From Promethearchaeota archaeon (GTDB lineage: Archaea > Asgardarchaeota > Lokiarchaeia > Sigyniarchaeales > SOKP01): DNA of 37,116 bases. The notes under the pieces were generated by a model. The model saw only the letters and a program-made list of their open reading frames with translations. It did not search any database and was not told the origin of the DNA. Shown here in pieces: positions 374-34,005 of this stretch. Where the stretch lies: the NCBI GenBank assembly GCA_030603385.1, contig JAUVXW010000039.1:1-37116 (forward strand). The letters are read 5' to 3'. The translations under genes were made by a program, and so were the position numbers. Position 1 is the first letter of the stretch, and the number at the start of each line of letters is the position of its first letter.

Positions 374-785
374 AACACTCTCATCTATGATATTATCATC
401 AATCAAAAAGAAAAAGTTGATGGTTTAAAATAAGTTAAAATTTAAAGATATATAAAGAAAAAGGGACAAAGAAAAAATAAATTTCTTTATATAATTTAAA
501 ATATCTTAAAAAATTGGAATGTAAGTTAATATTCAATTCAGAAATTCTTCCTACTTTAGATTATTAAGTTGTAATATCTTTATAATACTTAAAAAATTCC
601 TAGGTAATTTATAGACAAACAAAAATATTTCCTAAAAATAATTACATTGATTGTGGTTAATTAAATGGTTGTTAAGAGAAATTTTCTTTTAAAATTAATT
701 TTTAAAATATTTATATATACTTGAAATTTAAGATTGGGTAAATTCAAGTTAATAATCTCATAACAAAAGTATAGAAAATAAAAAA

Positions 786-938
786 TCGGTTATTTCACGA
801 ATCTAGACTTTAACATTTTTAAACATTGATTGTAGAGGAAATATCCTTAGGAATATATCTTTACTCTTGAAAATTTACAGTTTTATTTGGTTAAATTAAG
901 CTCAAATATGAAGATTAGGACCTATAACCGTTTCGCGA
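786..938 (+). repeat. A-spacer-B unit 1 (putative recombination site)
   Basis: TCGGTTATTTCACGA at 786-800, 124-bp spacer, TAACCGTTTCGCGA at 925-938. Confidence 0.85.
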
Positions 939-1127
939 ACTAATATAATATCATAGTATTTATCTAAATGTCACGTGAATTATAGGATCTATATTCAAAA
1001 AATGAAAGGAATTGCAGTTTAATTCTTGGTCATTATATGTATCAAATTAATTTATGTGTATTACTTTTAATTAATTAGAATTATATAGGAATTAAACAAA
1101 TTTATTCAAATTTATAATATAGTTATT

Positions 1128-1586
1128 ATGAGATATAAATTAAAATTATATCTGGACACATCAGTTATCTCAGCACTTTTTGATGAAAGAAATCCTGAAC
1201 GGAAATCTCTTACTGAATCATTTTTTGATGATATAGAAACATTTGAAATTTATATCTCAAATATTACTACATTGGAAATTGAAAAAACACCTGATAAAAA
1301 TCTTAAAAAATTAATGAAAGAAAGCATAACAAAATTTACAGTTCTTTCTGTTTCGGATGATGTTGAAGAATTAGCAAGAGAAATCATTCAAAAAGGAGCA
1401 ATTAATGCATCATATTCTGAAGATTCTTATCATATTGCTATAGCTATAATTAATGAAATGGATTTCCTTTTAAGTTGGAATTTTAGGCATATTGTTAGAA
1501 AAAAAACAAAGGATATTGTTAGAATGATCAGCAGTTTAAAAAATTTAAGACAAATAGAAATATTAACTCCTGCTGAATTATTATAA
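1128..1586 (+). CDS. PIN-domain (VapC-like) ribonuclease toxin
   Basis: LYLDTSV N-terminus, ED-x-x-HIA and LLSWNF-x-H motifs. Confidence 0.85.
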   Translation: MRYKLKLYLDTSVISALFDERNPERKSLTESFFDDIETFEIYISNITTLEIEKTPDKNLKKLMKESITKFTVLSVSDDVEELAREIIQKGAINASYSEDSYHIAIAIINEMDFLLSWNFRHIVRKKTKDIVRMISSLKNLRQIEILTPAELL

Positions 1587-1601
1587 TGAGGTTAAGATAT
1601 A

Positions 1602-1784
1602 ATGCTAGAAAAAGAAGAACTAGAGAAAATTAAAAAAGAAATTGAACGTGAATTTCCAAATGATTTTGCTTTGCAACAAATTCATATCGCAAGAAAGATC
1701 ATTGCTAAAGAAGCAGAAATGAAGGGTCTAAGTTATCTTGATTACATTAAATTGAGTATAAAAGATATGGAAGCAGTTCAATAA
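1602..1784 (+). CDS. small helical protein downstream of PIN gene, probable antitoxin
   Basis: 60 aa, GAGGT RBS; paralogues at 4510 (also directly after a PIN tail) and 3298. Confidence 0.6.
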   Translation: MLEKEELEKIKKEIEREFPNDFALQQIHIARKIIAKEAEMKGLSYLDYIKLSIKDMEAVQ

Positions 1785-1828
1785 AATAATTTATGTATAG
1801 TATTACGATAACCTATATTTAGTGAACT

Positions 1829-2056
1829 TTATTGGCATTGTGCTAATCTCGGTATTAATTCTTCGATATTCATCTGAACGAGATCATTAAGATTTAACTT
1901 TCTCCCTGTATAATTTAAAATCTCTACACCTACAATATTATCATTCTTGTCATAATCGATTATAATTCCTTCTGCTATTTCATCTGAATTTGAGATTTTT
2001 TCACTTGAAAATCGAATGTAGAGAGCATTTGCCATCTTATCAAAAGAGAAGTTCAT
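1829..2056 (-). CDS. DUF2283 family protein (putative antitoxin), copy 1
   Basis: FDKMANALYIRF...IIIDYD...IVGVEIL pattern. Confidence 0.8.
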   Translation of the reverse strand: MNFSFDKMANALYIRFSSEKISNSDEIAEGIIIDYDKNDNIVGVEILNYTGRKLNLNDLVQMNIEELIPRLAQCQ

Positions 2057-2135
2057 AGTTACTATAAAGGAGTATTTAATTAAATATTTATTCTATAATA
2101 ATAAGATTAAATTGAGGTTAAATTTATTTTCATTC

Positions 2136-2150
2136 TCGGTTATTTCACGA
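2136..2150 (+). repeat. A box (unpaired)
   Basis: TCGGTTATTTCACGA; similarity with the 4422-5058 duplicate stops at its last base. Confidence 0.85.
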
Positions 2151-2376
2151 TTGTATTGTAGAATTAGTTTTAAATTATTATATCTTAAATTTTAATAATA
2201 ACTCATGATACTTGTTGACTCTTGAATTAGCTGTTGTTTTCCGGAGGTTGTTTAATAACTCAATTCCTTAATATCCTTATTAAATATTATAGATATATTA
2301 TTATTTTTTGAGGATTTTTAATTACACAGTGAAATTTTAAACAGGAATAGATTATTTAAATAAAAAAAGAGGTCAT

Positions 2377-2561
2377 TCGCTTATTTCACGAATCTTATTT
2401 AATAAATTCATTCTTGGGTATTATAACCTTAATTTTGCGAATATTAATTATTTTTTTATAAATTTTAATTACCCAAAATCTCACTTCTTAAGTTGTTAAA
2501 TAGAGATTTCGGTCTAATTAAAGTTTCAGCTTTCAACTTAAATTCTATAACTGTTTCTAGA
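2377..2561 (+). repeat. A-spacer-B unit 2 (degenerate, 156-bp spacer)
   Basis: TCGCTTATTTCACGA at 2377-2391; TAACTGTTTCTAGA at 2548-2561. Confidence 0.65.
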
Positions 2562-2816
2562 AGATTTATATATATATTTTTGCATAATACATTGAGTTTT
2601 CGTTGTATTATCTGAAAATAATCAGACTCTTTATCAATTTAAATCATAGAATCTTGTATATTATTGGTAAATATTATTAATATAATATTGGCATTTTTTC
2701 AGTTTGTAATAACAAAATATAATTCTCAGAATTTCTTGAAGTAATATAGGAAATAAAATAATTTTCTCAACAAATTTTTTATTTTATATTTCAATTGGAA
2801 AAATCTGATATGAATA

Positions 2817-3023
2817 ATGAATGAAATAATATTTCTTGTCGAAGAATCTTTAGAAGGAGGCTATGAAGCAAGAGCTTTAGAAACCTCTATCCATACGGAA
2901 GCCGATAATCTAACTGAGTTAAAGGACTCAATTAGAGATGCTATAAGATGTCATTTTAATGAGAAAGAAAGACCTCGAATCATACGATTACATTTTGTAA
3001 AAGAAGAGGTTATAAATTTATGA
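2817..3023 (+). CDS. HicB-like antitoxin (short form)
   Basis: EIIFLVEESLEGGYEARAL...IHTEAD...IRDAIRCHF; ATGA overlap with hicA. Confidence 0.75.
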   Translation: MNEIIFLVEESLEGGYEARALETSIHTEADNLTELKDSIRDAIRCHFNEKERPRIIRLHFVKEEVINL

Positions 3024-3262
3024 TAATCCCGTGAAATATTAGCGGGATGAAATTATCCAAATTACTAAAAAGATTTGGATTTGAAATCACAAGGCAGACG
3101 AGAAGTCATATGAGATTAAGTACAACAATAGGAGGAGAATTTCATATTACTATTCCAAATCATAAGAGTTTGAAAATAGGTACAATTAATAATATATTAT
3201 CGGATATTGCAAAGTATCTCGAAATAGATAAGATAGAACTTATCAAGGCATTATTTGGATAA
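3020..3262 (+). pseudogene. hicA: HicA toxin with in-frame TGA at codon 5 (track ORF restarts at 3047)
   Basis: ATG ATA ATC CCG TGA AAT ATT AGC GGG ATG is in frame with the HicA body; the conserved GSH motif reads RSH. Confidence 0.7.
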
Positions 3263-3297
3263 GCAGGTATTCTATTTCATAATGAAGGCAAAAAAGA

Positions 3298-3384
3298 ATG
3301 TTGGATAAAAAAGAAATTGAAGATATTAAAAAAGAAATAGAATATGAATTTCCAAATAATCAATATATAAGAGCAATTAATTAA
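3298..3384 (+). pseudogene. truncated copy of the 1602..1784 small protein
   Basis: MLDKKEIEDIKKEIEYEFPN then diverges and stops. Confidence 0.65.
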
Positions 3385-3443
3385 ATACTTATTCTAGTAC
3401 ATTTGGATTAAACATTATTTTTTCATTTATTTGATTATAATAT

Positions 3444-3595
3444 TCGTTTATTTCACGAATCCCTAAAAAAAAGCTATGTTAATCATTTATTGTCTAATTT
3501 ATAATTAACTATTTGAACGTTTGAGAATTTAAAATTCGATTTTTTTAGGAAACAAGTGCTATATTTATCACTTAAAATTGGTAACCGTTTCACGA
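3444..3595 (+). repeat. A-spacer-B unit 3
   Basis: TCGTTTATTTCACGA at 3444-3458, 123-bp spacer, TAACCGTTTCACGA at 3582-3595. Confidence 0.85.
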
Positions 3596-3634
3596 TTTTT
3601 TTTAAGCTTATAAAAAATGAATTAGAGGTTGCTT

Positions 3635-3955
3635 TTAAGAAATAATTTCCCCATATTCTAAGGCGTCCATGATGAGAGAAGATCCGCCTTTAATTCTTTC
3701 AAATTCTTCTGGAGTATAACAGATATAATCAATATGTCTAGGAAAATCAAACTTTTTTAATAAGGATGGCATTCGTTCAATAAATGGGATTTCTTGGAAC
3801 AACTTTGACACGATTATTATGTCTAAGTCAGAATTCAATGTAGTATTCCCTTTTATTCGAGATCCGAAAATTATGATTGCTTTGGGGTTATATTCTTTAA
3901 GTATCTGTGGCAATAATGTCTTTTTAAAAAGTTTAGTTAATTTATTATCCTTCAT
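3635..3955 (-). CDS. minimal nucleotidyltransferase (MNT) antitoxin
   Basis: FGSR-x-KG...SDLDIIIV pol-beta NTase motif; overlaps the HEPN gene. Confidence 0.85.
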   Translation of the reverse strand: MKDNKLTKLFKKTLLPQILKEYNPKAIIIFGSRIKGNTTLNSDLDIIIVSKLFQEIPFIERMPSLLKKFDFPRHIDYICYTPEEFERIKGGSSLIMDALEYGEIIS

Positions 3956-4346
3956 TTTTTAATAACTCCTTATATCTATTTTCTAATTGAGCAAATATAT
4001 GTTTTGCTTTTTCTACTTTACTTTTGGCTATATTCTCAGTATAAATTTCATATGGTACTTGTTCAGTAACATCAGGATATCGAGCAATAATATAGTCTCC
4101 TGTCAAATCGATGACTTTATCCAAGATTTGATTCGATAAATTTAATCTTTTACCTAAATCCTCAATATAATGAATTTTGGGAATTTTTTTTCCTTCAAGA
4201 GCAAAAATCGATTTTAATAATTTTTCAATAGATTGATGAGAGAGAAATGCTGCAATATCATACCCTCCAATAGAGATATTTTTCTCAGCTATTTCTAAAT
4301 CATGTTTGGCTTGTTTAAACCATTTGAGAGCTATTTCTTTATTCAT
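3945..4346 (-). CDS. HEPN domain protein
   Basis: W-x-x-QA-x-x-DL, AAFLSHQSIEKLLK, PKIH and ARYPD motifs. Confidence 0.85.
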   Translation of the reverse strand: MNKEIALKWFKQAKHDLEIAEKNISIGGYDIAAFLSHQSIEKLLKSIFALEGKKIPKIHYIEDLGKRLNLSNQILDKVIDLTGDYIIARYPDVTEQVPYEIYTENIAKSKVEKAKHIFAQLENRYKELLKNEG

Positions 4347-4421
4347 ATGGAGCCTTTATACTATTAATGGAAATTTCTTCTTATATTATGAATAGCGTTT
4401 GATATTTAAATCTTTTAAGAA

Positions 4422-4493
4422 ATTGTAAGAATGATCATTACATTAAGAAATTTAAGACAAATAGAAATATTAACTCCTGCTGAATTATTATAA
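4422..4493 (+). pseudogene. 3' remnant of a PIN toxin paralogous to 1128..1586
   Basis: IVRMIITLRNLRQIEILTPAELL* versus IVRMISSLKNLRQIEILTPAELL*. Confidence 0.8.
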
Positions 4494-4509
4494 TAGAGAT
4501 AGATAAATA

Positions 4510-4671
4510 ATGTTAAATAAAGAAGAAATTGAAGAAATTAAAAAAGGAATTGAATCCGAATTTCCAAATGATTTCGCTTTGCAACAAATTCATATTGCTA
4601 GAAAGATCATTGCTAAGGAAGCAGAGAAAAAGGGTTTAAATTATCTCGACTACATTAAATTAATCACTTAA
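4510..4671 (+). CDS. second copy of the small PIN-associated protein (53 aa, slightly early stop)
   Basis: MLNKEEIEEIKKGIESEFPNDFALQQIHIARKIIAKEAEKKGLNYLDYIKLIT*; below the track length cutoff. Confidence 0.7.
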   Translation: MLNKEEIEEIKKGIESEFPNDFALQQIHIARKIIAKEAEKKGLNYLDYIKLIT

Positions 4672-4736
4672 AACATAGAAATGGTTTAATAAGCCTATTT
4701 ATGAACACAATCAAAATAATCCATGTATATTGAATT

Positions 4737-4964
4737 TTATTGGCATTCTGCTAATCTCGGTATTAATTCTTCAATATTCATCTGAACAAGATCATTAAGA
4801 TTTAACTTTCTCTCTGTATAATTTAAAATCTCTACACCTACAATATTATCATTCTTGCCATAATCGATTATAATTCCTTCTGCTATTTCATCTGAATTTG
4901 AGATTTTTTCACTTGAAAATCGAATGTAGAGAGCATTTGCCATCTTATCAAAAGAGAAGTTCAT
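4737..4964 (-). CDS. DUF2283 family protein, copy 2
   Basis: 3 aa differences from 1829..2056. Confidence 0.8.
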   Translation of the reverse strand: MNFSFDKMANALYIRFSSEKISNSDEIAEGIIIDYGKNDNIVGVEILNYTERKLNLNDLVQMNIEELIPRLAECQ

Positions 4965-5043
4965 AGTTATTATAAAGGAGTTTTTAATTATATATTTATT
5001 CTATAATTATAAGACTGAATTGAGATAAAATTTATCTTCATTC

Positions 5044-5197
5044 TCGGTTATTTCACGAAAACGTATCCTCAGTCAGTTATTTTCTGCTTTTGCTTAAAAT
5101 TTAAGCAAGATCTTAAATAGTCCAAAAATCTAATTTTTGGTTCTCTAAAGGAGAGAATCCCTTTTTGATAAGATAAAATTTGATAACCGCTTCAGGA
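5044..5197 (+). repeat. A-spacer-B unit 4 (spacer type S)
   Basis: TCGGTTATTTCACGA at 5044-5058, 125-bp spacer, TAACCGCTTCAGGA at 5184-5197. Confidence 0.85.
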
Positions 5198-5305
5198 ACA
5201 AATGTGATATTAGGGTATATATGGTGATATTTCATTTGTATTATGATTTTATATCTCTAATACCCAATCCTTTAAGGAATAGTAGTTAACCTGTGTAATT
5301 TTTTA

Positions 5306-5671
5306 TTAGGTCGAAGAAATCTCTTTTTTTCCTTCCTTTAATATGTTTTGAATTTCTGATTTTAGTTTCGGCAATCTTTTTTGAACAGTTTCCCAGACAA
5401 GATTAAGATCAACGTCGGAATAACCATGAATCAATCTATCTCTCATCCCCGCCATTTCTTTCCAAGGTATTTGTGAGTATTGATCCCTGATGTTATTAGA
5501 AATGTTTTTTGTTGCTTCCCCAATGATTTCAAACTTTCTTATCACTGCACTCATAGTTTTGTCATCTTTTTTAAAATCTTCAAAATTCATTCCTTCTACA
5601 AAGGTGTCTATGCTTTTTAATGCATTTACGATATCATTAAGATATCTTAGGTGATTTTTACTCATATACAA
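5306..5671 (-). CDS. HepT-like (DUF86) HEPN ribonuclease toxin
   Basis: EIIGEA, IPWK-x-MAGMRDRLIHGY with R-x4-H motif. Confidence 0.9.
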   Translation of the reverse strand: MYMSKNHLRYLNDIVNALKSIDTFVEGMNFEDFKKDDKTMSAVIRKFEIIGEATKNISNNIRDQYSQIPWKEMAGMRDRLIHGYSDVDLNLVWETVQKRLPKLKSEIQNILKEGKKEISST

Positions 5672-5954
5672 CCTCTTGTAGAATATTTTCCCTTAAATCC
5701 TTTTTTAAAGCGGGTTTAGAAATCACGTCGACCTTTCGCTTAAACTTTTCTTCTAGAAAAAAGATCAAACCCATGTAATCAAATAAATCCGCGCCTTTTT
5801 CGAACTCTACTAAAAAGTCGATGTCACTTGAGTCTTTTTGTATATCTTTGACGTATGAACCAAATAAACCAATTGATTTTACTTTATATTCAGACTTAAT
5901 GTCCTTTTTCATATCTTTCAGAATATTGAGAATTCGAGTCTTATCAAGCAGCAT
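5658..5954 (-). CDS. MntA-like nucleotidyltransferase antitoxin
   Basis: IGLFGSY...SSDIDFLVEF, RKVDV. Confidence 0.9.
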   Translation of the reverse strand: MLLDKTRILNILKDMKKDIKSEYKVKSIGLFGSYVKDIQKDSSDIDFLVEFEKGADLFDYMGLIFFLEEKFKRKVDVISKPALKKDLRENILQEVVYE

Positions 5955-6121
5955 CTAAACATCCTCGTGATTTAAATGAAGAAAAAGTATTTTATTAGAT
6001 AATTTTTTTGAATAATTTCATTATATTAAAAGTATTTCCACTATATTAAATCATGGGAGTGCAGAAATTTTAGTATTTAATATTAGCTACATATTCTCTA
6101 AATATGAGTTTCAGTTTTTAT

Positions 6122-6150
6122 TAAGATAAAATTTGATAAACGTTTCACGA
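6122..6150 (+). repeat. 3' end of spacer S plus B box
   Basis: TAAGATAAAATTTGA-TAAACGTTTCACGA matches 5169-5197. Confidence 0.8.
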
Positions 6151-6221
6151 AGTGTTAAATTTCATAAGATTCTAATCTTAACTCAAAATCTTGAAAGTGG
6201 CGAATATTTCTTGTAGGTGGA

Positions 6222-6833
6222 ATGGTCACAATTGATAATGCTTTTACTCCACAACTACTTGGCCAAATTTTAAATTGTAATCATACTCTCCATATAGGTA
6301 AAATTTTGAAATGGAATTTTCCTAATTCAAGTTGGTTGGTTGATGTATTCTTTGACGATATATATTTAAAAATAAACCCTATTATTAGTGGATTTTTAAA
6401 TGGAGATGCAATCTTAGGTAATTCAATTAATTCTTTGAGTTGGGATTCCACGACTAAAAATTTCAGTCTTAGCTTAGAAATACCCGAACTCAGTTATGGG
6501 GATTCAATTTCCTTAGATCTTGCAAATTTGGAATATGACATTAATTTTCAAGTTGATTGGATGTTAGGATATGAAACAGGTTGGGGGATTTCTTGGCTAT
6601 TTGGGGAGGGAGATGAATATAAATTAACTACTTGGCCTAAGGTAAATCTCGATTTAGTTTCCACTGAAGGGACAATAGGATTAAAAGCTTGGGTTGCTGG
6701 AGATACTACTTGGATTTCAGCTGATACAGTAAGAGATAGTAATCCCGTGATCTCGAGTTATAATATATTTTTCATGATTGGTGTGATTGGGATTATATCT
6801 GGAATTCTATTAAGAAAGAAATTTTACAAATAG
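6222..6833 (+). CDS. C-terminal fragment of a surface protein with Loki-CTERM-like anchor (probably 5'-truncated)
   Basis: Ends ISSY + hydrophobic helix + RKKFYK; no signal peptide; upstream frame has stops at 6192 and 6165. Confidence 0.55.
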   Translation: MVTIDNAFTPQLLGQILNCNHTLHIGKILKWNFPNSSWLVDVFFDDIYLKINPIISGFLNGDAILGNSINSLSWDSTTKNFSLSLEIPELSYGDSISLDLANLEYDINFQVDWMLGYETGWGISWLFGEGDEYKLTTWPKVNLDLVSTEGTIGLKAWVAGDTTWISADTVRDSNPVISSYNIFFMIGVIGIISGILLRKKFYK

Positions 6834-6861
6834 ACTAAAATAGGAGATTTTTGCATTGTTT

Positions 6862-6935
6862 AAAAATCTAATTTTTGAATCTCTAAAGGAGAGAATCCAT
6901 TTTTGATAAGACAAAAATTAATAACCGTTTCACGA
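6862..6935 (+). repeat. 3' half of spacer S plus B box
   Basis: AAAAATCTAATTTTTG...TCTCTAAAGGAGAGAATCC...GATAAGA...TAACCGTTTCACGA (B box 6922-6935). Confidence 0.85.
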
Positions 6936-7197
6936 TTGAACATAATATCTGAAGATACATGAGTGTAATATTCTAATAATATGAAATAATCATTTTAAAA
7001 TGCCAAGATAAAATCATTCTCAACTAAACCTATAAAGTAAAAGATATTGAGAATTTACATCATATATTTAAATTTATTTCACTTTATTAAATCATAGGAG
7101 CGTAAAATAAAAATTACTTTAAGATTAATTATTAATTGAAAAGCGATTATTAATTCTATGAAAGAGTGAGTAATATCAATTTTTTTTAAGTGAATGA

Positions 7198-7783
<586 letters not shown>

Positions 7784-7921
7784 TGTTATATTCTCATAAT
7801 AGTTTAAAAAAATATTTCTCTAAGTTAAGTGCTCCATGTAATTAATTAATAATGAAGATAATATCACTTTAGACGAATTGAAGTAAATATAAAAAATATT
7901 TTTTATCTGCTATCTTAATAT

Positions 7922-8075
7922 TCGGTTCTTTCACGAATCCCCACAAAAACTAATCTAACAATTATTTTATCCTGAATCTTAATGGTCTAAGAGTCAATTT
8001 ACTAAAAACTCAGCTCTTATTTTTCAATAAATAGACACTTTGAGTTTACCTTTTAGTTCTGTAACCGTTTCACGA
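7922..8075 (+). repeat. A-spacer-B unit 5
   Basis: TCGGTTCTTTCACGA at 7922-7936, 125-bp spacer, TAACCGTTTCACGA at 8062-8075. Confidence 0.85.
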
Positions 8076-8199
8076 ACTTTTTGTAACTATTGAAATCAAG
8101 TTTTAAGCATTTATAAATCCCTAATTTTTGATAATTTGATATTTTAAACAGATTTCCAATATGTATTTAAATAGATTTTACTATATAATATCATAGAAA

Positions 8200-8442
8200 A
8201 TGTCAGACATAATCGAAAGTAATCCGGAAATTCTAGGAGGAAAGCCTATCATTAAGGGAACCAGAATTCCCGTTGCTTTAATCTATGAACTAATTGGATT
8301 GAATTATTCAATAAGCGAAATTCTTAAAGAATATCCACATTTGGATCGTAATATTATTCTAACTCTTCTTAAGATTGGGAAGGATGCAAATGAAAACCTT
8401 ATGAATGTGGATATTGATGAGATTATAAGTAAAGAGGTTTAA
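8200..8442 (+). CDS. DUF433 antitoxin
   Basis: NPEILGGKPIIKGTRIPV...EILKEYPHL. Confidence 0.9.
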   Translation: MSDIIESNPEILGGKPIIKGTRIPVALIYELIGLNYSISEILKEYPHLDRNIILTLLKIGKDANENLMNVDIDEIISKEV

Positions 8443-8445
8443 TTT

Positions 8446-8517
8446 TTGAATTTTCTTCTCGATGAGAATGTACCTATCTCGATTAAAGATGTAATTCATG
8501 ATTTAATTTATTATTGA
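8446..8517 (+). pseudogene. truncated DUF5615 PIN-like toxin
   Basis: TTG start, NFLLDENVPISIKDVIHDL, stop a few codons later. Confidence 0.75.
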
Positions 8518-8629
8518 AAATAAATTATAGATTATTAAAGGTGCTTATCATAGTTTTAAAGAAGTTGTTCTTAATTATAGATCAGAATTAAATTAATTTA
8601 GATGCGTTTCTTATATTTAATTAATAATT

Positions 8630-8863
8630 ATGACTCAAGTGAAATTGGATAAAGCTTTAGCAGAGGATTTAATTACATCTAAATTAAGAATTTTAAAACA
8701 ATATATTGATGAGATACTAACTCGCTATAATGAATCTTCCTCTAAGGAATTCTTAGAGAAAACGCGTAATGGGACTTATAAAAATGCCGAAGATGATGCA
8801 GTAGAATTGCGCCAATTACTTTCAGAATATACTAAATTACAAGAGATATTAAATAATTTATAA
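8630..8863 (+). CDS. small helical protein, probable antitoxin of the DUF6516 gene
   Basis: 77 aa, Y-x-x-SS-x-EFLEK...G...EDD pattern; directly upstream of the DUF6516-like gene. Confidence 0.55.
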   Translation: MTQVKLDKALAEDLITSKLRILKQYIDEILTRYNESSSKEFLEKTRNGTYKNAEDDAVELRQLLSEYTKLQEILNNL

Positions 8864-8883
8864 AAATTTCCGTTGATATATAT

Positions 8884-9245
8884 ATGGATTCTAGAAGGAA
8901 TCTTGAGTTAGCTCGAGAGTCATTATAAATGATTATAATGAATATATAAGAGGTATTATCCTCGATAAAGACCGTCCGGTCTTAAAAATTGTATTTCATA
9001 GAGAAGTCTACCTTTATTTACGTTATAACGATTATGGAGAATATTCTTATAGCACTATCTTTTCTCCTAATCCTGATGATCAAATACGATTTGATAATTA
9101 TGATGATATATGGGATGTAAAAACACGTCCTCATCATTTTCACATTCGAGGAATGAAAAAAGTTATAGAGAGTCCTATGAAAGGAGAACCTGAGCACGAT
9201 ATTCCTATCCTTCTAAAATTTGTGTTAGAAAATATTAAGAAATAG
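8884..9245 (+). pseudogene. DUF6516/TumE-like toxin, frameshifted near 8914-8919
   Basis: MDSRRNLELAR, then in another frame VIINDYNEY...GEYSY...IRFDNYDDIWDVKTRPHHFH...ENIKK*; R-x-DN and PHH-x-H motifs; no start codon ahead of these motifs in the second frame. Confidence 0.75.
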
Positions 9246-9263
9246 TATTGTTTGATTTAATGT

Positions 9264-9406
9264 TCGGTTATTTCACGAAACCGTAATCCTAAGTCAATTG
9301 TTTTCTGCTTTTGCTTAAAAATTTAGCAAGATCTTAAATAATTCATAAATCTAATTTTTGAGACTCTAAAGGAGAGAATCCGTTTTTAATAAGACATAAT
9401 TTGATA
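9264..9406 (+). repeat. A box plus full spacer S; B box lost after TA
   Basis: TCGGTTATTTCACGA at 9264-9278; the spacer aligns to 5059-5185. Confidence 0.85.
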
Positions 9407-9488
9407 GTGGTTTTATATCTAAAAAAGTATAAACTTTATCTTATTTATGTCTTAAACTTCTTAGTAGGAATATTAAGAAAATCAAATG

Positions 9489-11762
9489 TTATGTTTTCTT
9501 TAGTTGAAATATCTTATTTTTTATTAATTTAAGGATTATTTCGACATCTTTAGTTTGAAAACCTTTTTTTGTTGACAATAAATTAAAAACATAGAAATAA
9601 TCGGTATTATTAGCCTTCATTATTGATACGGCTCTCGTAATCATAGATTTTTCATCCGGACTAGTCTTGACTTGGTGTTTAATTACTTTTAAGGGGGAAT
9701 TAAGAGACGTTTCTAAATATTCTTCGAGTAGTTCCTTAATACCTATAAATGGACCAAGGTCTCCATCAAATTTTGAAATTGCGCTACTGAACTTTTTCTC
9801 AATTTCATAAGATAAAATTTTGATAGAATCTAAAAAATCATGAGAAGGGTTATCTTTCATGAGAAGCAATATTCTAAAATTCTTAAATTCTGACATTAAG
9901 ATCTTTAAATTCATATAATCTAATTTAATAGTTTGAGTGTATTCTTCTGAATCAGTTAATTCAATTCCAAAACTCCGTATTGCTTGCAAGAAACCTGAGA
10001 TTAGAGAACTATCAAATTTTTTCCCGCCATAAAGATGGTCGAAAATAGTCAATCCAGATTCTTTATCTGATATAATAAAATAATCTAAATTTAACATGTC
10101 CCTGTATTTATTAAATATTCTCTGTCGATGCTCTTTACGAATATTTCTGGATCTCTTAACAAGTTTATATGAAGCAAACCCCGTAGTTGAAATAATGGCT
10201 ATTCCGACAAGTATAATCATAATCAACATTGGATCTAAAGTAAATGGAATAATTATGTCAAAGACTTGTGATTGAATTCCTGCATCTGTATTATTATTCC
10301 AATAGATTTTAATAGTATATAACCCCTCGCGTGAATTTGAGGGAATTTTGTATGAAAAAAATGTTTCTTCTGATTGGACTTCTTTCACAATAGGTTCTTC
10401 AAAACCGTAATTTAAGGGATTAATTAGATCGAAAGTAACATTTCCTTCGTTAATAGGCGAAAAAACAGAGAATTGTAATTCTTGTCTAGGTTTCCATTTT
10501 AAATCATTAAGAACCAAATCAAAATTGATATTTGGTGAATATGCAACAATTTTCCAATCTGCTCCATCTTTAATTGTAGCGTTGTGTATAACGATGTATC
10601 TTTTATCCCAATTAATAGTAGTATTTGAAGTTATATTTTCCCATTCTGTACTTAATTTTCGGTAAACAGTTAAATTGAACCAACTTTTTGGAAAGTTAAA
10701 TTGTATAGAATAATTCGGTGAATTTCTGGAAAATATAGGAAAAAGCGTCCATTCATTATCGTAGTTTTCTTTAATAATTGCAGAACTTCTCGTTGAAAAT
10801 TCATTTGTTAAATGAATAGTATAATTATAATTGAAATTTAATTCTATAGTCTGATTAATTTGGAAAGGAATATATACATTAGTACTGCCGATAACATGAG
10901 AGATATTTGCGATCTCTAAAACCCCAGTTCCCATTTTTGGTCCGTTAATTATTTTGTAAGTCTCACCATTAAATTCAGAGGTCATATTTATATCCTCAGG
11001 ATTGTACATTCTTTCAACTCTCTGATTCAATTTAAATAAAAAGCTTGTATTCACGATCCCAGTACTCCAGGAAGTTATATAAGATGACGTATATAGATGT
11101 GGAATTTGAGGATTCAAGGTGTTCTTCTGCCAATAATATTTTGCTAGATAATTTTGAGGTAAATTAGTTCCGTTCATAACTAATGAATAATTCCCAATTG
11201 GAAGTGTAATTGGATCTGATGAAAAATCTTGATAATACCAATCCAAATTGGTAGAAATATTCAAATCGATAGATCTATAGATTGTATTATTAGGACTATA
11301 ATTACCTTCATCATATCCTTGTATTTGGAATTCAATAATCTCAGTTGCTTCTACAGTTTTATATCCTTTTATAAAAACACCATATATTTCAGTAAGTTCC
11401 AAAATTTCAAGTTGCGTTCCTAGCGCAAATGTCCTAAACATAGAATTTCTATTCCATAGTGTTTCTAATCCTGTTTCTATGTCTTCAAATATGTTAATTT
11501 CACTGCTTAAGCTTATATCCGAAATATTCATTTGTATATCTGTAACGGTCCAATTTGACTCGGGTAGTTGAATACTGATTGAACTTATATTGTCTTTTGT
11601 CCCTTTTATTTCTGAGTATTCAAAAAATTTAAAACTTGGATGAATTATATGAGACTCTGTATATAATTGAGCATGAGATAGATGTACAATTTGAAACAGG
11701 CTCAATACTAAAATTGATGTTACTAACACGGATAGACCAGAAATTTTTTTAAATTTTTTCAT
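9489..11762 (-). CDS. single-pass membrane protein: signal peptide, large extracellular beta-rich region, TM helix, cytoplasmic longin/roadblock-like domain
   Basis: N-terminal hydrophobic leader; TM MLIMIILVGIAIISTTGFASY; IISDKESGLTIF...LISGFLQAIRSFGIEL resembles Asgard longin-like domains. Confidence 0.7.
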   Translation of the reverse strand: MKKFKKISGLSVLVTSILVLSLFQIVHLSHAQLYTESHIIHPSFKFFEYSEIKGTKDNISSISIQLPESNWTVTDIQMNISDISLSSEINIFEDIETGLETLWNRNSMFRTFALGTQLEILELTEIYGVFIKGYKTVEATEIIEFQIQGYDEGNYSPNNTIYRSIDLNISTNLDWYYQDFSSDPITLPIGNYSLVMNGTNLPQNYLAKYYWQKNTLNPQIPHLYTSSYITSWSTGIVNTSFLFKLNQRVERMYNPEDINMTSEFNGETYKIINGPKMGTGVLEIANISHVIGSTNVYIPFQINQTIELNFNYNYTIHLTNEFSTRSSAIIKENYDNEWTLFPIFSRNSPNYSIQFNFPKSWFNLTVYRKLSTEWENITSNTTINWDKRYIVIHNATIKDGADWKIVAYSPNINFDLVLNDLKWKPRQELQFSVFSPINEGNVTFDLINPLNYGFEEPIVKEVQSEETFFSYKIPSNSREGLYTIKIYWNNNTDAGIQSQVFDIIIPFTLDPMLIMIILVGIAIISTTGFASYKLVKRSRNIRKEHRQRIFNKYRDMLNLDYFIISDKESGLTIFDHLYGGKKFDSSLISGFLQAIRSFGIELTDSEEYTQTIKLDYMNLKILMSEFKNFRILLLMKDNPSHDFLDSIKILSYEIEKKFSSAISKFDGDLGPFIGIKELLEEYLETSLNSPLKVIKHQVKTSPDEKSMITRAVSIMKANNTDYFYVFNLLSTKKGFQTKDVEIILKLIKNKIFQLKKT

Positions 11763-11943
11763 CTCTCTACAAAAACCTATTATTCCTACCTTATTGAAAT
11801 GAATGAACTATGTATTGTCTTTTATATACTTTAAATACCTACTAAAATAGTATTAATATTAGCATAAAAATTTATGTCAAAAATGTCAAAAAAATAAATA
11901 AATCAATAATTGATTTGAGGCTCACTTAATCGAGTAATATTTT

Positions 11944-12191
11944 ATGGTAGATCCTGAAAGGATCTATAATTTGAATCTTCACTAGAGTGTCGCTAAAGCT
12001 AAAAGTAGGGATTATAAGAGTAAGTTAGCTATTGCCCCTCTGAAAATGGGAGTATTTTCATAGCAACTTTAGACTTTCACATGGGCAAATTACTTTCGAA
12101 ACTTGCGAAGAAGAAAATGCAATAAATATCCCAACACATGATTAAAGAAGGGCAAAATTTGAAAAAGATTTTAGAAAAATCTTTATCTTAA
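11944..12191 (+). pseudogene. decayed ORF of unknown family ending just before an A box
   Basis: Coding-like frames with internal stops (...FIATLDFHMGKLLSKLAKKKMQ*ISQHMIKEGQNLKKILEKSLS*). Confidence 0.25.
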
Positions 12192-12194
12192 CAC

Positions 12195-12233
12195 TCAGTT
12201 TTTTCACGGAACCATAATCATAAGCTTAATGTT
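12195..12233 (+). repeat. degenerate A box plus start of spacer S
   Basis: TCAGTTTTTTCACGG followed by AACCATAATCATAAG, compare AACCGTAATCCTAAG after the 9264 box. Confidence 0.6.
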
Positions 12234-13095: not shown

Positions 13096-13224
13096 TTGAA
13101 TTTTCTTCTCGATGAGAATGTACCTACCTCGATTAAAGATGTAATTCATGATTTAGGTTTTGATGTTTTCACCTTACATGATTTCAATATGCTAGGTATT
13201 CAGAATGGTTTTTTCACTCCTTAA
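13096..13224 (+). pseudogene. truncated DUF5615 toxin (longest of three remnants)
   Basis: NFLLDENVPTSIKDVIHDLGFDVFTLHDFNMLGIQNG; near-identical DNA to 8446-8505. Confidence 0.75.
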
Positions 13225-21891: not shown

Positions 21892-22010
21892 AAAAAAATA
21901 TAAAATTATTAAAATCTACTTTTAAACGTCAATAAAGCCCTAATTTTTGAATATTTAGTCTATTTTTCAATATGTATTTAAACATATTTTACTATATAGT
22001 ATAATAGAAA

Positions 22011-22253
22011 ATGTCAGATATTATCGAAAGTAATCCGGAAATTCTAGGAGGAAAGCCTATCATTAAGGGAACCAGAATTCCCGTTGCTTTAATCTATGAA
22101 CTAATTGGGTTGAATTATTCAATAAACGAAATTCTTAAAGAATATCCACATTTGGATCGTGATATTATTCTAACTCTCCTTAAGATTGGGAAGGATGCAA
22201 ATGAAAACCTTATGAATGTGGATATTGATGAGATTATAAGTAAAGAGGTTTAA
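22011..22253 (+). CDS. DUF433 antitoxin, copy of 8200..8442
   Basis: 2 aa differences of 80; upstream ~90 bp also homologous. Confidence 0.9.
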   Translation: MSDIIESNPEILGGKPIIKGTRIPVALIYELIGLNYSINEILKEYPHLDRDIILTLLKIGKDANENLMNVDIDEIISKEV

Positions 22254-22256
22254 TTT

Positions 22257-22286
22257 TTGAATTTTCTTCTCGATGAGAATGTACCT
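22257..22286 (+). pseudogene. 10-codon remnant of the DUF5615 toxin
   Basis: TTGAATTTTCTTCTCGATGAGAATGTACCT identical to 8446-8475. Confidence 0.7.
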
Positions 22287-22407
22287 TCCGTTGATTGTTA
22301 TTGAAAAAGTTACTTCACCTGTTTTATTACTAATGGTATAAGGAAATTATAATTATAAACTAGAATAAAAATTATATAAGTATAAAATCTATTCATATTA
22401 TAGAAAA

Positions 22408-22689
22408 ATGGTAGAGAAAATAACAATTAAACTACCAGCTGACCTTCTTGAGTTAACTGGTCTTAGTTCTAAAAATTTGGAAGAAAAAAGTCTTCTAATA
22501 TGGATATTAGATATTTATGCAGAGGGAAAGATAACGCTTTCCAAAGCGGCTAATCTATTGAATATGAAAGTGGATAAATTTTTATCAGAATTTCATAAAC
22601 GTCATCTTAAACATATTGGCGGGCCTGAATCCGTAGAAGAAGCTCAAAAGGAGTACGATTTAGTTCAGAAATTAACAAATGACGAGTAA
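22408..22689 (+). CDS. UPF0175 family antitoxin
   Basis: YAEGKITLSKAANLL. Confidence 0.8.
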   Translation: MVEKITIKLPADLLELTGLSSKNLEEKSLLIWILDIYAEGKITLSKAANLLNMKVDKFLSEFHKRHLKHIGGPESVEEAQKEYDLVQKLTNDE

Positions 22690-22694
22690 TATGC

Positions 22695-23150
22695 ATGATT
22701 ATCCTCGATAATAGCGTATTAAGCGCATTTAGACGTCTTAAACTCCTTTCTAATTTAAATAAATTAATATCCTCTGCAATAATCTCTAAAGAAGTTTTCA
22801 ATGAATATTCAAAACGGTGGCAGAAGAAAATTCCAAATTGGATCAAAATTAAGCAACCCAGTGATGATATAATATTGGAATCAAGTCCCGTATCATTAAG
22901 TATAGTGGACCTAAGTCTTATAAGATTAGCTTTAGAACATAAAATTCCTATCGCAACAGATGATAAACCCTTACGTCAATTTGCCAAGAATTTAGGTATT
23001 TCAATTGTAGGATCTCTTGGTTTATTAAAATCACTCTATCAAAGTAAGATTATTAAAACAAGAGAAGAATATTTATCGTTTTTAGAATCTCTTCAAGAAG
23101 ATATTTTTATTTCTGACGAGCTCATGAAGTGGGCATTAGAAGAGCCTTGA
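22695..23150 (+). CDS. PIN/DUF3368-type toxin
   Basis: IILDNS, TDD-x-x-LR-x-x-A-x-x-LG...GSLGLL. Confidence 0.8.
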   Translation: MIILDNSVLSAFRRLKLLSNLNKLISSAIISKEVFNEYSKRWQKKIPNWIKIKQPSDDIILESSPVSLSIVDLSLIRLALEHKIPIATDDKPLRQFAKNLGISIVGSLGLLKSLYQSKIIKTREEYLSFLESLQEDIFISDELMKWALEEP

Positions 23151-23296
23151 TTTACTATTGGTATTAATTACAATTTAATCAAAAATAATTAGATCTATTA
23201 AAACTTTAATAGAGGTATTAAGCAATTCAGATCAACGATTTGTAAGAATTCAAAATTCTTGTTTTTATTTTAAATACTTAAATTTTTCTTAAATTA

Positions 23297-23914
23297 TCAT
23301 TCCTTAATCTTATATCCTGTTTCTTCCCATGCTTTTCTTATTACCGGATTTTTTTTAAGAAATGAATCAACTACTTCTTTTTTTACATGGTTAAAAGGGC
23401 AAGAGAAATTTAAACAATTGCCACACCTTTTTATAATTAAAAAACTAAAGAAGATGAAAATTTCTATAATTGAAATTATTAAAAAGATAAATTGACCACC
23501 CAGTATTAAAAAAATTAATGGATATCCAACAAGAATAATAAAACCAATCATTAATTGAATTTTTTCAGATGTCTTCATAGGTTCTGGGTGATATTTCCAG
23601 AGTTTAAGACTACCATAATTAGCAATACAATGTAATGTTTTCCCTTCTTCCGCATAGTAAGGACAATGACTACAAAGAATTCTGATTTCCCAAAATTCAA
23701 AGAAAATGAACCAAAAACCAACCCAACCTAATAAAAACCAACCAAAACCAGCCATTATAACGCCAATAAAAGCAGTAATGACAAAAATAATGAATAATCC
23801 TATAAAACTAAACAAATATTTTCTATGGAAATGGCATATTAGTTTGCCTTTTATAAAGCAATCATTACATTCTTCAGTATCTTTCCAGATACAAACATTG
23901 TGGAGATTTTTCAT
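23297..23914 (-). CDS. Cys-rich multi-pass membrane protein
   Basis: Four hydrophobic segments; CSHCPYY, CGNCLNFSCPFN. Confidence 0.7.
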   Translation of the reverse strand: MKNLHNVCIWKDTEECNDCFIKGKLICHFHRKYLFSFIGLFIIFVITAFIGVIMAGFGWFLLGWVGFWFIFFEFWEIRILCSHCPYYAEEGKTLHCIANYGSLKLWKYHPEPMKTSEKIQLMIGFIILVGYPLIFLILGGQFIFLIISIIEIFIFFSFLIIKRCGNCLNFSCPFNHVKKEVVDSFLKKNPVIRKAWEETGYKIKE

Positions 23915-24028
23915 TGTATTATTATTAAATTAACCTTTTAATATCATATACAAATTTCTACTAGAGTTAAATATTGTTATGAAAAAACCTGGAAGAGTAA
24001 AATATGACCCAAAGAATTATTTGTAAAC

Positions 24029-24475
24029 TTAATTTGAACTTAGATAATTCTTGCAGAATTCTTCTGATGTGCAAATTTTTATAAGGTTCTTTACTCGATT
24101 AAATCTTCCATCATTAGAGATTAAGAATGACACTTTCTCATGTAAAGAAGCTGCGACAATAATGCTATCGGGTAATCTAAGATTTGTTTCACTTCGAATT
24201 TTTGCCGATTGATCAGCTAATCTCCTATCCAAATTAACGATTATGTAATTATCTTGTGAATATAACTTCGAAATATATTCATCTTTCTCTTTAGGTTTAT
24301 TTATATTATAGTAACCTACGCATAGTTCTGCAATTGTAATATTCGAAATAACTCCTTTTAATTGTCCGTCTTCAATCGCATCTAAAATCTTAGAAGAATT
24401 TTCGCAAAATGGCTCTTCTTCTTCTTTAACATTTATAAAGATATTAGTATCAATTGTTATTTTCATTAATCCCAT
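24029..24475 (-). CDS. vapC: VapC PIN toxin
   Basis: IDTNIFI, IS-x-ITIAE, LRLPDSII, ISND. Confidence 0.9.
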   Translation of the reverse strand: MGLMKITIDTNIFINVKEEEEPFCENSSKILDAIEDGQLKGVISNITIAELCVGYYNINKPKEKDEYISKLYSQDNYIIVNLDRRLADQSAKIRSETNLRLPDSIIVAASLHEKVSFLISNDGRFNRVKNLIKICTSEEFCKNYLSSN

Positions 24476-24702
24476 TCCTCTCTTAATTTCCTCTGAAATT
24501 CAACCCCTTTAACCCCCCAACGAGTATGACTTTTTAAGATCTCTACAAGCCTTCTTTTTTCGGGTTTTTTCAGAATGATCTCATTATCTTTCAAATAAAC
24601 AATAAGCTTATCCCCTTTTAAAATGTTCAATCGCTCTCTAACTTCTTTGGGAATGGTTATTTGCCCTTTTTCACTTACAGTTATTCTTGCTACTATCTCC
24701 AT
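24466..24702 (-). CDS. AbrB/MazE/SpoVT antitoxin
   Basis: VSEKGQITIPKEVRERL-x-I-x-x-GD; LREEW C-terminus. Confidence 0.9.
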   Translation of the reverse strand: MEIVARITVSEKGQITIPKEVRERLNILKGDKLIVYLKDNEIILKKPEKRRLVEILKSHTRWGVKGVEFQRKLREEWD

Positions 24703-26961: not shown

Positions 26962-27840
26962 ATGAATCCAAAAAAGATTTGTATCTATTATTTTTCTGGA
27001 ACTGGTAATACTGAACTTGTCTCTAAACTTTTTTGTAAAGAGTTTAGAAAGCAGGGTGCTAAAGCTGACATTATTGCAGTTGAAGAAATTCTAAAGGGTA
27101 AAATTTCAATAAACGTGAAAGATTATGACCTTCTAGGCTTTGGACACCCCGTACACGCATTCAGCGCACCTAGAATCTTTTTTGAGTTTATAAAAAGCCT
27201 TCCACCTGCTGGAGTTATTCCTTCATTTTATTTCAGAACAGCGGGAGACCCTCTTTGTAATGGTGGAGCTACTTCCCTGGTAAGGAAGATTTTGCAGTAT
27301 AAGGGGTATAAAGTGTTTCATGAGAGTCTTCTGGTTATGCCCGCAAATGTGTTAATTCAATATGATGATGAGTTAGTAAAGCAATTGTTTATCACAGCAA
27401 AAAGAAAAATCTTTAAAATAGTTAAGGAAGTGTTACAGAATGAAGTTAACCTACAAAAGAACAGTCTGATATTGAGAATCATCTCATATCTATTTAGTAA
27501 AGCAGAAACTATTGGAGGGAAATATTTCGGGGAATATCTATATGTCACCGATAGTTGCAACCAATGTAATCTCTGTATTAATAAATGGCCGACAGGTAAT
27601 ATTTATAAAGACAATGAAAGTGGAAAAATTAAATTTGGAAAAAAATGCACCTTTTGCTTGAAGTGTGTTTATCTTTGTCCAAATAATTCTATTAAGAGCA
27701 AATACATGAACTTCTTTATTCTAAAGGATGGATATAATATCCAAAAAGCCATCGAGAATCCCATGTTGAAAGGTATATATGTAACGGAAGCCACAAAAGG
27801 TTACTTTAAGCATTTTTATAAATATTTAAGCGATGTTTAA
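26962..27840 (+). CDS. EFR1-family flavodoxin-ferredoxin fusion
   Basis: YFSGTGNT, MPAN, CNQCNLCINKWP, CTFCLKCVYLCP. Confidence 0.85.
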   Translation: MNPKKICIYYFSGTGNTELVSKLFCKEFRKQGAKADIIAVEEILKGKISINVKDYDLLGFGHPVHAFSAPRIFFEFIKSLPPAGVIPSFYFRTAGDPLCNGGATSLVRKILQYKGYKVFHESLLVMPANVLIQYDDELVKQLFITAKRKIFKIVKEVLQNEVNLQKNSLILRIISYLFSKAETIGGKYFGEYLYVTDSCNQCNLCINKWPTGNIYKDNESGKIKFGKKCTFCLKCVYLCPNNSIKSKYMNFFILKDGYNIQKAIENPMLKGIYVTEATKGYFKHFYKYLSDV

Positions 27841-29045: not shown

Positions 29046-29070
29046 GAAACAAGTTAGGTGGTTTTTAAAT

Positions 29071-29676
29071 TTGATAAGTGATAAAGAGTTAATTAACAAA
29101 GTAGAAGAAATATTAGAATTCTTAAAAGTAAATACAGTTTCCATAGATTTTAAAAAAATTAAGAATGAGATTTCTAAACTGGATTCAAAGCTAAAGACTT
29201 CATTATTTCCAAACGAAAAATTTAAAGAAATTTTCTCAGACAAAGCTCTTTTTCCAAATTTAACTGAAATAAAATCATTTATGTCAAAAAACTTTAAGAT
29301 TGAGATTAAAGAACGTTCTACAGCAGGAATATTGTCGATAATTACTTACTATCTTACTATTGATCCTACATTATTACTTAAAATTCAAAATAAAGCTATT
29401 ACTTTAAAAGTAAAACCACCAATTGCTCCAATAAAAAGAACCCCTTCAAAAAGGAAAAAAAAAGTAATAACTGATAAAAGTTGGAGGGATTGGACTAAAT
29501 ATAATCCGGTTGATTTAAGAGAACATTTAAATGATCTCACAGTTGCTCAGATTAAATCCCTTTCTGGAAAATTATTAATTTCAAGTGAGAAAAATGTAAG
29601 AAGAGCAATATTGGTTGAAAATATTATTAGAAAGATAAAAAGATTAGAAACTCATTATGGAATGGGACCTGGATGA
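29071..29676 (+). CDS. basic hypothetical protein with C-terminal HeH (Rho-N/SAP-like) motif
   Basis: AGGTGG RBS; LNDLTVAQIKSLS...RRAILVENII; ATGA overlap with next gene. Confidence 0.55.
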   Translation: MISDKELINKVEEILEFLKVNTVSIDFKKIKNEISKLDSKLKTSLFPNEKFKEIFSDKALFPNLTEIKSFMSKNFKIEIKERSTAGILSIITYYLTIDPTLLLKIQNKAITLKVKPPIAPIKRTPSKRKKKVITDKSWRDWTKYNPVDLREHLNDLTVAQIKSLSGKLLISSEKNVRRAILVENIIRKIKRLETHYGMGPG

Positions 29677-30161: not shown

Positions 30162-30252
30162 AAATGAAAATTAAATGATTAATACTTATTTTAGGTCATT
30201 TTTTAATATTACTTAGGCTTAATAAATTCTAAATTATCCAAAGTTTTTAATT

Positions 30253-31271: not shown

Positions 31272-31281
31272 GTGATATCAT

Positions 31282-32252: not shown

Positions 32253-32254
32253 TA

Positions 32255-33994: not shown

Positions 33995-34005
33995 TTTTAA
34001 TCACC

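Follow-up and report, generated by a model that had tools for sequence, protein, structure and literature searches.

Prokaryotes are known to stockpile and reshuffle ready-made genes at short recombination sites in two ways, integrons and dif modules, and the paradigm in each case is bacterial. Here, we analyzed a stretch of 37,116 nt (hereafter, the window) that is the entire contig C43 of a 3.89-Mb assembly (58 contigs, 30.7% GC) of a Lokiarchaeial (Promethearchaeia) Asgard archaeon. Positions 787–12210 of the window hold an array in which 13 copies of a short box separate mostly toxin-antitoxin cassettes. Each box is 14–15 nt long and comes in one of two forms, L (CGGTTA + TTTCACGAA) or R (TAACCG + TTTCACGAA); the 6-mers of L and R are mutually reverse-complementary, and the direction of the 9-mer TTTCACGAA, the arm, is constant. 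In eight relatives, such boxes surround a full palindrome, the hub, in which the same 6-nt spacer lies between two arms. We think it reasonably likely that the boxes are recombinase sites. With similar, better-than-even confidence, we read 787–12210 as one arm of a site-specific chromosomal cassette array fed from a palindromic hub, probably by a tyrosine recombinase of the XerA type.

The closest described systems are the plasmid dif (pdif) modules of Acinetobacter, which are moved by XerC/XerD (PMC6449649, PMC13141974, PMC7399989). Like the array described here, dif modules very often hold toxin-antitoxin pairs and have short sites of the Xer type (arm, 6-bp spacer, arm) as their borders, and neighboring sites alternate in spacer orientation. 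Neither system has a linked recombinase gene; in dif modules, the cell's own Xer enzyme does the work. Rearrangement of dif modules (inversion, deletion, exchange) takes place between sites with identical spacers, and mosaics suggest that such events may occur here too. The sites themselves differ. Those of dif modules have 11-bp arms on both sides of the 6-bp spacer, whereas the boxes have one conserved arm and only the hub is two-armed. In addition, flipping is confined to the spacer here and the arm keeps a constant direction, a single two-armed site per genome serves as the center, and the half-sites are tied by a phased linker of a fixed 137–139 nt. The arrays are also chromosomal and archaeal, and XerA is a candidate enzyme only.

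Integrons and clusters of attC sites lacking an integrase (CALINs) have been described as well, archaeal ones included (Ghaly et al. 2022, PMC9668308). They share with the present locus a polar, promoter-variable cassette array in which each cassette ends in a recombination site, frequent toxin-antitoxin cargo, more decayed distal sites, and one privileged insertion point (attI there, the hub here). In contrast, attC sites are imperfect inverted repeats of 55–140 nt that form a hairpin with the order R''-L''...L'-R' (RYYYAAC ... GTTRRRY). The elements described here do not fold in this way, and their inverted 6–7-mers are ordered GTT...AAC, not AAC...GTT. Moreover, the intI gene, which in integrons encodes an integrase with the IntI-specific domain and adjoins attI, is absent here, and the arrays are two-sided and mirror-symmetric around the palindrome.

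Archaeal XerA/dif serves chromosome-dimer resolution (Cortez et al. 2010, PMC2958812; reviewed in PMC8371274). The likeness lies in an inverted repeat with a 6-bp spacer that is unlinked to the recombinase gene, and a XerA equivalog is encoded in this genome. However, dif is expected once per chromosome, whereas each genome here has 2–8 palindromes that share their arms and differ in the spacer. One-armed sites are familiar from lox66 and lox71, each of which has one good and one poor arm, so that recombination by Cre yields one fully two-armed and one armless site; these are engineered laboratory variants with no natural array architecture. By analogy, an L × R event here would give arm'-CGGTTA-arm. 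Literature searches returned no description of this cassette system, and the only report found on archaeal cassette systems concerns classical attC integrons. The aloposons and repeats of Wu et al. 2022 (PMC8813620) are unrelated elements. Altogether, the boxes and hub would be a variant of site-specific cassette systems, distinguished by half-sites in which the single arm is fixed and the spacer flips, by a lone hub with mirror polarity around it, and by a phased linker of fixed length.

The duplicated block and the box array

The initial annotation had proposed that one arrangement (PIN tail, small protein, convergent DUF2283 gene) occurs twice in the window. Alignment (1512–2150 and 4419–5058) and Pfam matches (PIN, DUF2283) bear this out, and the features concerned are the following.

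1128–1586, + strand: intact PIN-domain gene of cassette A (Pfam PF01850, E = 2.5e-7)
1512–2150, + strand: copy A (alignment), comprising the PIN 3' end, a small 60-aa gene, and the convergent DUF2283 gene with its upstream region; ends at an L-box core
1829–2056, − strand: DUF2283 gene of copy A (Pfam)
3279–3360, + strand: third, truncated copy of the start of the small-protein gene (77–84% identical), which lies some 85 nt before the L box at 3445
3635–4346, − strand: MNT nucleotidyltransferase and HEPN gene pair, which replaces the first five sixths of the copy B PIN gene (Pfam; run X1 contig)
4419–5058, + strand: copy B (alignment; independent-run contigs with 0 differences over 4422–5059), comprising a PIN tail remnant, a 53-aa gene, and DUF2283; ends at an L-box core
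4737–4964, − strand: DUF2283 gene of copy B, 98% identical to that of copy A (Pfam)

The two copies align without large gaps. Identity is 91% over the PIN tail (1512–1586 vs 4419–4493), 98% over the DUF2283 gene (Pfam E-values of 2e-17 and 1.6e-16), and 90% over the region upstream of that gene (2057–2150 vs 4965–5058); it then drops to 29%, the random level, in the 100 nt past the core (2151–2250 vs 5059–5158). The right edge of the duplication falls exactly past TTTCACGA, which forms the 3' part of the box, at 2150 and 5058, and the further claim that near-identity up to the core gives way to unrelated sequence right after it was correct. The small 60-aa and 53-aa proteins match no Pfam family. 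This block is among the cleanest within-genome demonstrations of the box joint; it would represent two occurrences of a single cassette tail (PIN, small gene, DUF2283), which are joined at their L boxes to different downstream DNA. A full third cassette copy at 3279–3458 was rejected, as homology is convincing only for the first 80 nt and ambiguous for the remainder.

The left edge of the duplication (1512/4419) has a different origin. It lies inside the PIN gene, no box is found there, and the 100 nt preceding it are 34% identical. A contig from the public run X1 joins a full PIN gene to copy B at 4422, with zero differences on the copy B side. Therefore, copy B descends from a complete PIN/small gene/DUF2283 cassette that lost its head later, and the left edge is a separate replacement of the PIN 5' part by the HEPN/MNT pair that was not box-mediated.

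TTTCACGA occurs 11 times in the window (1.0 expected), always on the + strand and always within 793–9278; when one mismatch is allowed, the series reaches 12202. Every one of the 13 boxes is on the + strand. Along the array, the spacer alternates in orientation (L, R), with a single spacer sequence and its reverse complement in use. The arm does not invert with the spacer, and the side opposite the arm is variable. Five L/R pairs are spaced by 137–139 nt (787/925, 3445/3582, 5045/5184, 7923/8062, and 9265/~9404), and the intervening DNA is referred to as the linker. Cassette genes sit from an R box to the following L box, and the co-oriented boxes bound about 10 cassettes in a polar array. Its elements are listed below.

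787–939, + strand: junction element E1, with L box 787–801, linker, and R box 925–939 (core TTTCGCGAA)
2137–2151, + strand: lone L box that ends copy A, followed by no linker or R box
2378–2392, + strand: lone L-type box with the spacer variant CGCTTA; 2151–2377 is a gene-less segment
3445–3596, + strand: junction element E3, with L box 3445–3459 and R box 3582–3596 at a spacing of 137 nt; linker 80–90% like one in the relative locus L152
5045–5198, + strand: junction element E4, behind copy B, with L box 5045–5059, linker, and degenerate R box 5184–5198
6094–6151, + strand: partial element E5, with the right part of a linker and R box 6137–6151, no L box
6840–6936, + strand: partial element E6, with the right part of a linker and R box 6922–6936, no L box
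7923–8076, + strand: junction element E7, with L box 7923–7937 (variant CGGTTC), linker, and R box 8062–8076; linker subfamily common to 5 relatives
9265–9419, + strand: junction element E8, with L box 9265–9279, linker 88% like that of E4, and a decayed R box near 9404–9419
12196–12210, + strand: E9, degenerate distal L box (core TTTCACGGA), probably the old end of the array

The most decayed boxes, the R box of E8 and E9, are those farthest right. Boxes at 5044, 9264, and 12195 had been described in the initial annotation as having unrelated DNA upstream and related DNA downstream. This stands for the first two (5065–5185 vs 9286–9406, 88% identical) and weakly for the degenerate third, in which the likeness extends over about 25 nt. 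No other such array exists in the assembly; boxes with at most one mismatch all lie on C43 except for one probable chance match. An exact-word scan of 185,579 species genomes gave almost exclusively chance matches, and several matches together were found on one Promethearchaeia contig only. An origin of TTTCACGA from a tRNA 3' end (att site) was rejected by inspection, as there is no complementary T-stem.

The linker is AT-rich (25% GC) and falls into subfamilies that are 75–90% conserved between species. The distance from an L box to the next R box is bimodal, with 19 cases at 137–140 nt, 18 at more than 400 nt, and only one other case, of 33 nt. AA/TT dinucleotides show a 10.5-bp periodicity that is typical of intrinsically bent DNA (z = 7.9 relative to shuffles, a generous value given that the 18 non-redundant linkers are mutually related). 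Folding both strands of five junction elements gave z-scores of −2.7 to +0.6 and no long hairpin, so that folding was no better than for shuffled sequence, and alignment folding kept only the CGGTTA/TAACCG pair of 6–7 nt. An attC-like or structured-RNA reading of the elements was rejected because neither the single-sequence folds nor the alignment folds contain a conserved structure.

Homology breakpoints and hubs in relatives

Of 61 related genomes, 37 contain the box, far in excess of a control with the reversed word, and the matches are often clustered, co-oriented, and located at contig ends. L/R pairs at 137–139 nt recur in many genomes of the genus. We retrieved about 50 loci of the same Lokiarchaeial genus, in which 91 boxes had enough flanking sequence for pairwise comparison. 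Nine L-L pairs are 85–95% identical upstream and unrelated downstream, and in all nine the similarity ends 0–2 nt past TTTCACGA. The nine pairs belong to seven independent cassette families, one of which is the DUF2283 cassette, seen in three other genomes. The converse, shared downstream DNA, was seen in six L-L and three R-R pairs, with similarity starting 0–8 nt left of the 6-mer. There are 26 one-sided R-R pairs at the box in total; in 23 R-R pairs, the linker is shared and the cassette behind it differs.

An all-against-all BLASTN comparison of 51 loci (416 kb, 142 boxes) yielded 347 distinct homology end points. Of these, 79 (~23%) fall between −20 and +10 of the core end, an interval that makes up 1.06% of the sequence, which corresponds to an enrichment of about 21-fold. 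The pile-up of breakpoints at the core that the initial annotation had envisaged is therefore present across these loci. Furthermore, the ends are sorted by side: all 29 ends at 0 to +3 of the core end are right-hand ends, and 20 of the 21 at −20 to −9 are left-hand ends. Upstream homology thus ends at the 3' end of TTTCACGA, downstream homology begins at the 5' edge of the 6-mer, and the overlap between blocks is exactly the box, a pattern characteristic of exchange at a short common site.

The cassettes that recur in relatives include DUF2283, VapBC, PIN together with the small gene, and two further genes, one of 339 aa and one of 77 aa, the latter accompanied by its partner. The order and neighbors of these cassettes differ among relatives, and their orientation relative to the boxes is constant. 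At 6 loci, from 5 genomes, an L box has the DUF2283 gene immediately upstream. A different composition was observed on another Promethearchaeia metagenome-assembled contig (L015/L151, 12098–16413), where four co-oriented lone L boxes with no linkers or R boxes separate genes of other than toxin-antitoxin type (hydrolases, a zinc-ribbon protein). Arrays are therefore not limited to toxin-antitoxin cargo, and boxes without a linker are common. This lone-L array lies downstream of an orthologue of the window gene at 26962–27840.

The joint is also seen in natural variants. Eighteen public runs from ten studies (marine sediment, cold seep, subsurface) contain 17–43% of the sampled words of window positions 600–10000 and therefore hold some cassettes and not others; the low-share runs (X8–X14, X19–X24) provide no evidence on habitat. 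We compared the contigs of four runs with the window; the joins described here are among those listed and provide qualitative evidence, and joins with sides of 21–22 nt were treated as paralogue noise. Since the contigs are unitigs built at k = 31, the shared 15-nt box cannot create joins artificially. The most informative variant is a 407-nt contig of run X1 that matches window positions 9097–9280 (2 differences), continues with 3461–3592, and ends in 91 unlike letters: it is a cassette tail joined at the L core to the linker of another cassette, with a third sequence past the R core. A 638-nt contig is identical to 4422–5059 and stops at both edges of the duplication. Other contigs have a match ending at 802, the end of the first L core, join 12185 to 9263, or leave 2150 into other DNA, and a contig of run X3 carries further cassette DNA left of window position 1.

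Full palindromes occur as well. Seven perfect ones (TCGTGAAA, 6 nt, TTTCACGA), with seven different spacers, lie elsewhere in the genome:

Genome G000, palindromes at C4:232408, C11:7527, C15:59004, C18:56491, C25:28364, C30:85760, and C31:11098

Half-sites with the spacers of these seven palindromes were not found in this genome. Each of the 36 genus genomes searched at first has 1–8 palindromes, and the control has none. Specific palindrome spacers recur at apparently orthologous sites, the commonest being CGATGA. These palindromes may serve as dif, further hubs, operators, or terminators.

The hub, that is, the full palindrome with the CGGTTA/TAACCG spacer of the array, was found in 8 of 54 genus genomes, once in each. 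The boxes around the eight hubs point away from the hub without exception (36/36), since the 19 boxes left of a hub all lie on the − strand and the 17 right of a hub all on the + strand; one hub contig has three further + strand boxes farther right. In two hub loci, an R box follows 139 nt past the hub, so that the hub plays the L part of a junction element. The single-contig relative G006 has no CGGTTA hub and only one box-like match, with one mismatch. Therefore, the system is accessory and the hub is not the essential dif.

Proposed half-site exchange and rival explanations

We propose that the boxes are half-sites, each keeping a single arm of a full palindrome (arm', 6-nt spacer, arm), at which a trans-encoded recombinase would exchange DNA. 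In this notation, the hub is arm'-S-arm, an L box is x-S-arm, and an R box is y-S'-arm. In a hub × L event, the spacers have the same direction, and a circle carrying L-linker-R-genes would integrate beside the hub or be excised; the outcome would reproduce the observed order hub-linker-R-genes-L. In a hub × R event, the spacers are opposed, and the intervening DNA would invert, such that the old hub would become an outward-pointing R box and the R box a new hub with a flipped spacer. Because both events keep the arms pointing off the hub, the model would explain the polarity of all 36 boxes. L × R events would break this polarity, yet they are absent, which suggests that recombination requires a two-armed partner. 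In addition, according to the model, a hub should lie beyond the left end of the window, and the advanced decay of the rightmost boxes agrees with this prediction.

In the initial annotation, TTTCACGA itself was taken as the strand-exchange point. The part of this claim that stands is that the box holding it is the joint, given the seven cassette families, the 79 end points, and the contig that passes from 9280 to 3461; the joint can be placed only within the shared 14–17 nt box. Mosaics cannot separate a crossover in the spacer from one in the arm, since every box shares both parts. The hubs, however, are built as arm/6 nt/arm, like dif or lox, and XerA cleaves at the spacer borders (PMC8371274), which makes exchange likelier in CGGTTA than in TTTCACGA. 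More likely, then, TTTCACGAA is a protein-binding arm and the 6-nt spacer is the exchange region.

Several points weigh against reading the boxes as recombinase sites. The loci were selected for containing boxes and the related genomes are not independent, so that the breakpoint statistics are overstated. Variants within the boxes do not clearly co-segregate with either flank and single out no crossover position, in the spacer or after the arm. The same arms occur with other spacers at housekeeping loci, and some DNA-binding protein other than a recombinase could therefore recognize the arm. This assembly, in which the array abuts the contig start, lacks the CGGTTA hub, and no circular or inverted intermediate was observed directly. 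Finally, tblastn found no recombinase homologue in 30 array or hub loci of relatives (within ~10 kb), and no gene is conserved within ~10 kb of the hubs or arrays examined; the enzyme is therefore a guess.

Because neither a recombinase nor any conserved gene accompanies these hubs and arrays, the enzyme would act in trans. The genome encodes five tyrosine recombinases (PF00589), all on contigs other than C43. One of them, a 307-aa protein on contig C26 with SAM-like and catalytic domains, scores 234.8 bits with the NCBI XerA equivalog model (cut-off of 220), and the integron-integrase models score far below their cut-offs for the recombinases of this genome. XerA may thus serve as the default candidate, with much lower confidence than we place in the boxes as recombinase sites.

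Alternatively, the boxes could be sites for a regulator or nucleoid protein, or terminator-like signals, with the shuffling left to ordinary homologous or microhomology recombination and no dedicated recombinase. We regard this as unlikely. It would account for the position of the same-arm palindromes at conserved housekeeping loci (in most cases 3' of genes or where two genes converge), for the lack of a recombinase linked to the arrays, and for a linker of phased, bendable DNA, as at protein-wrapped regulatory regions. However, an identity of 14–15 nt is very short for homologous recombination, yet about 23% of the homology ends are found at it. The 6-nt part and the arm are equally conserved, and the former has two reverse-complementary forms only, a hallmark of oriented crossover spacers and not of one-sided operators. 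Similarly, mirror polarity about a full site with the same spacer follows from site-specific inversion and integration, not from regulation. The downstream start codon also lies at no fixed distance from the R box (72–269 nt), and antisense cassettes are numerous.

A second alternative is that only the L-linker-R unit (~153 nt) moves, as a small non-autonomous repeat resembling a miniature inverted-repeat transposable element that inserts between genes; the breakpoints would then be repeat ends and the cassettes immobile. Linker subfamilies with conserved ends and fixed length do recur in many genomes, 23 of the 26 one-sided R-box pairs consist of shared linkers with different DNA behind them, and many box matches lie at contig ends, as repeats do. 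Nevertheless, seven families join the same tail exactly at the box to different linkers or to none, which would need repeated insertions at one nucleotide, and lone L boxes without a linker exist. Neither terminal inverted repeats beyond the 6–7 nt spacer pair nor variable target duplications were found, the flanking direct repeat always being TTTCACGAA, and the polarity of the boxes around a palindromic hub is not expected from random insertion. We therefore consider a mobile repeat improbable.

That the duplication is an artefact of assembly or binning, with strain variants collapsed or concatenated, is hardly credible: although the contig is of metagenome type, ends in the array, and covers a region that is strain-variable in public runs, misassembly is excluded because the copies are 2–10% diverged, with different flanks, and independent-run contigs bridge both the left (4397–4778, 4397–4863) and the right (5030–5251) junction of copy B without differences, and the same architecture occurs in dozens of other assemblies.

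Neighboring genes and implications

The first 13 kb of the window are AT-richer (24–29% GC) than the remainder and contain small genes of toxin-antitoxin type, which Pfam assigns to PIN, DUF2283, HicA, HEPN/MNT, HepT/MNT, DUF433/DUF5615, and VapBC. No Rfam 15 family matches at or above its gathering score anywhere in the window. At 8886–9245, a gene of a 120-aa family (the partner of the 77-aa protein) is split by a frame change near 8925, with a stop after the first 14 codons and the remainder in another frame without a start codon; the family is intact in the relatives L152, L156, L180, and L183, and the copy here is probably a cassette gene in decay. A DUF5615 (PIN-like) gene is represented by three truncated copies of its 5' end (8445–8515, 13096–13224, and 22248–22300), two of them directly behind a DUF433 gene.

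Toxin-antitoxin genes are also found outside the array. A second cluster, without boxes, lies at 21900–24500 (DUF433, a UPF0175/PIN-like pair, PIN) inside otherwise metabolic DNA. Here, the DUF433 cassette head of 8085–8434 is duplicated at 21904–22245 (94% identical); the similarity starts about 10 nt past the R-box core, and the copy at 21904–22245 has no recognizable box. Farther right, genes at 28089–35142 (a ParA-like ATPase and proteins of 531 and 378 aa) have homologues that adjoin the hub palindrome in the relative G018 (contig C57, 16–21 kb).

Taken one step further, the locus may belong to an undescribed Lokiarchaeial gene-capture system, a possibility that we put forward only tentatively. 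In such a system, the hub would take up circular cassettes carrying two half-sites with mutually flipped spacers and a bent linker of fixed length, and inversions between hub and half-site would let the hub walk and would give rise to two-sided, mirror-symmetric arrays. The reactions would be run by XerA with no dedicated integrase, and the system would be an independent archaeal counterpart of integrons and dif modules.

If our interpretation is correct, a genus-wide chromosomal system would explain the turnover of toxin-antitoxin and defense islands in the archaeal lineage closest to eukaryotes, and it would provide a natural example of half-site (one-armed) recombination logic. The XerA gene and oligonucleotides of the hub, L box, and R box would also be concrete substrates for biochemistry on these nearly uncultivable organisms.

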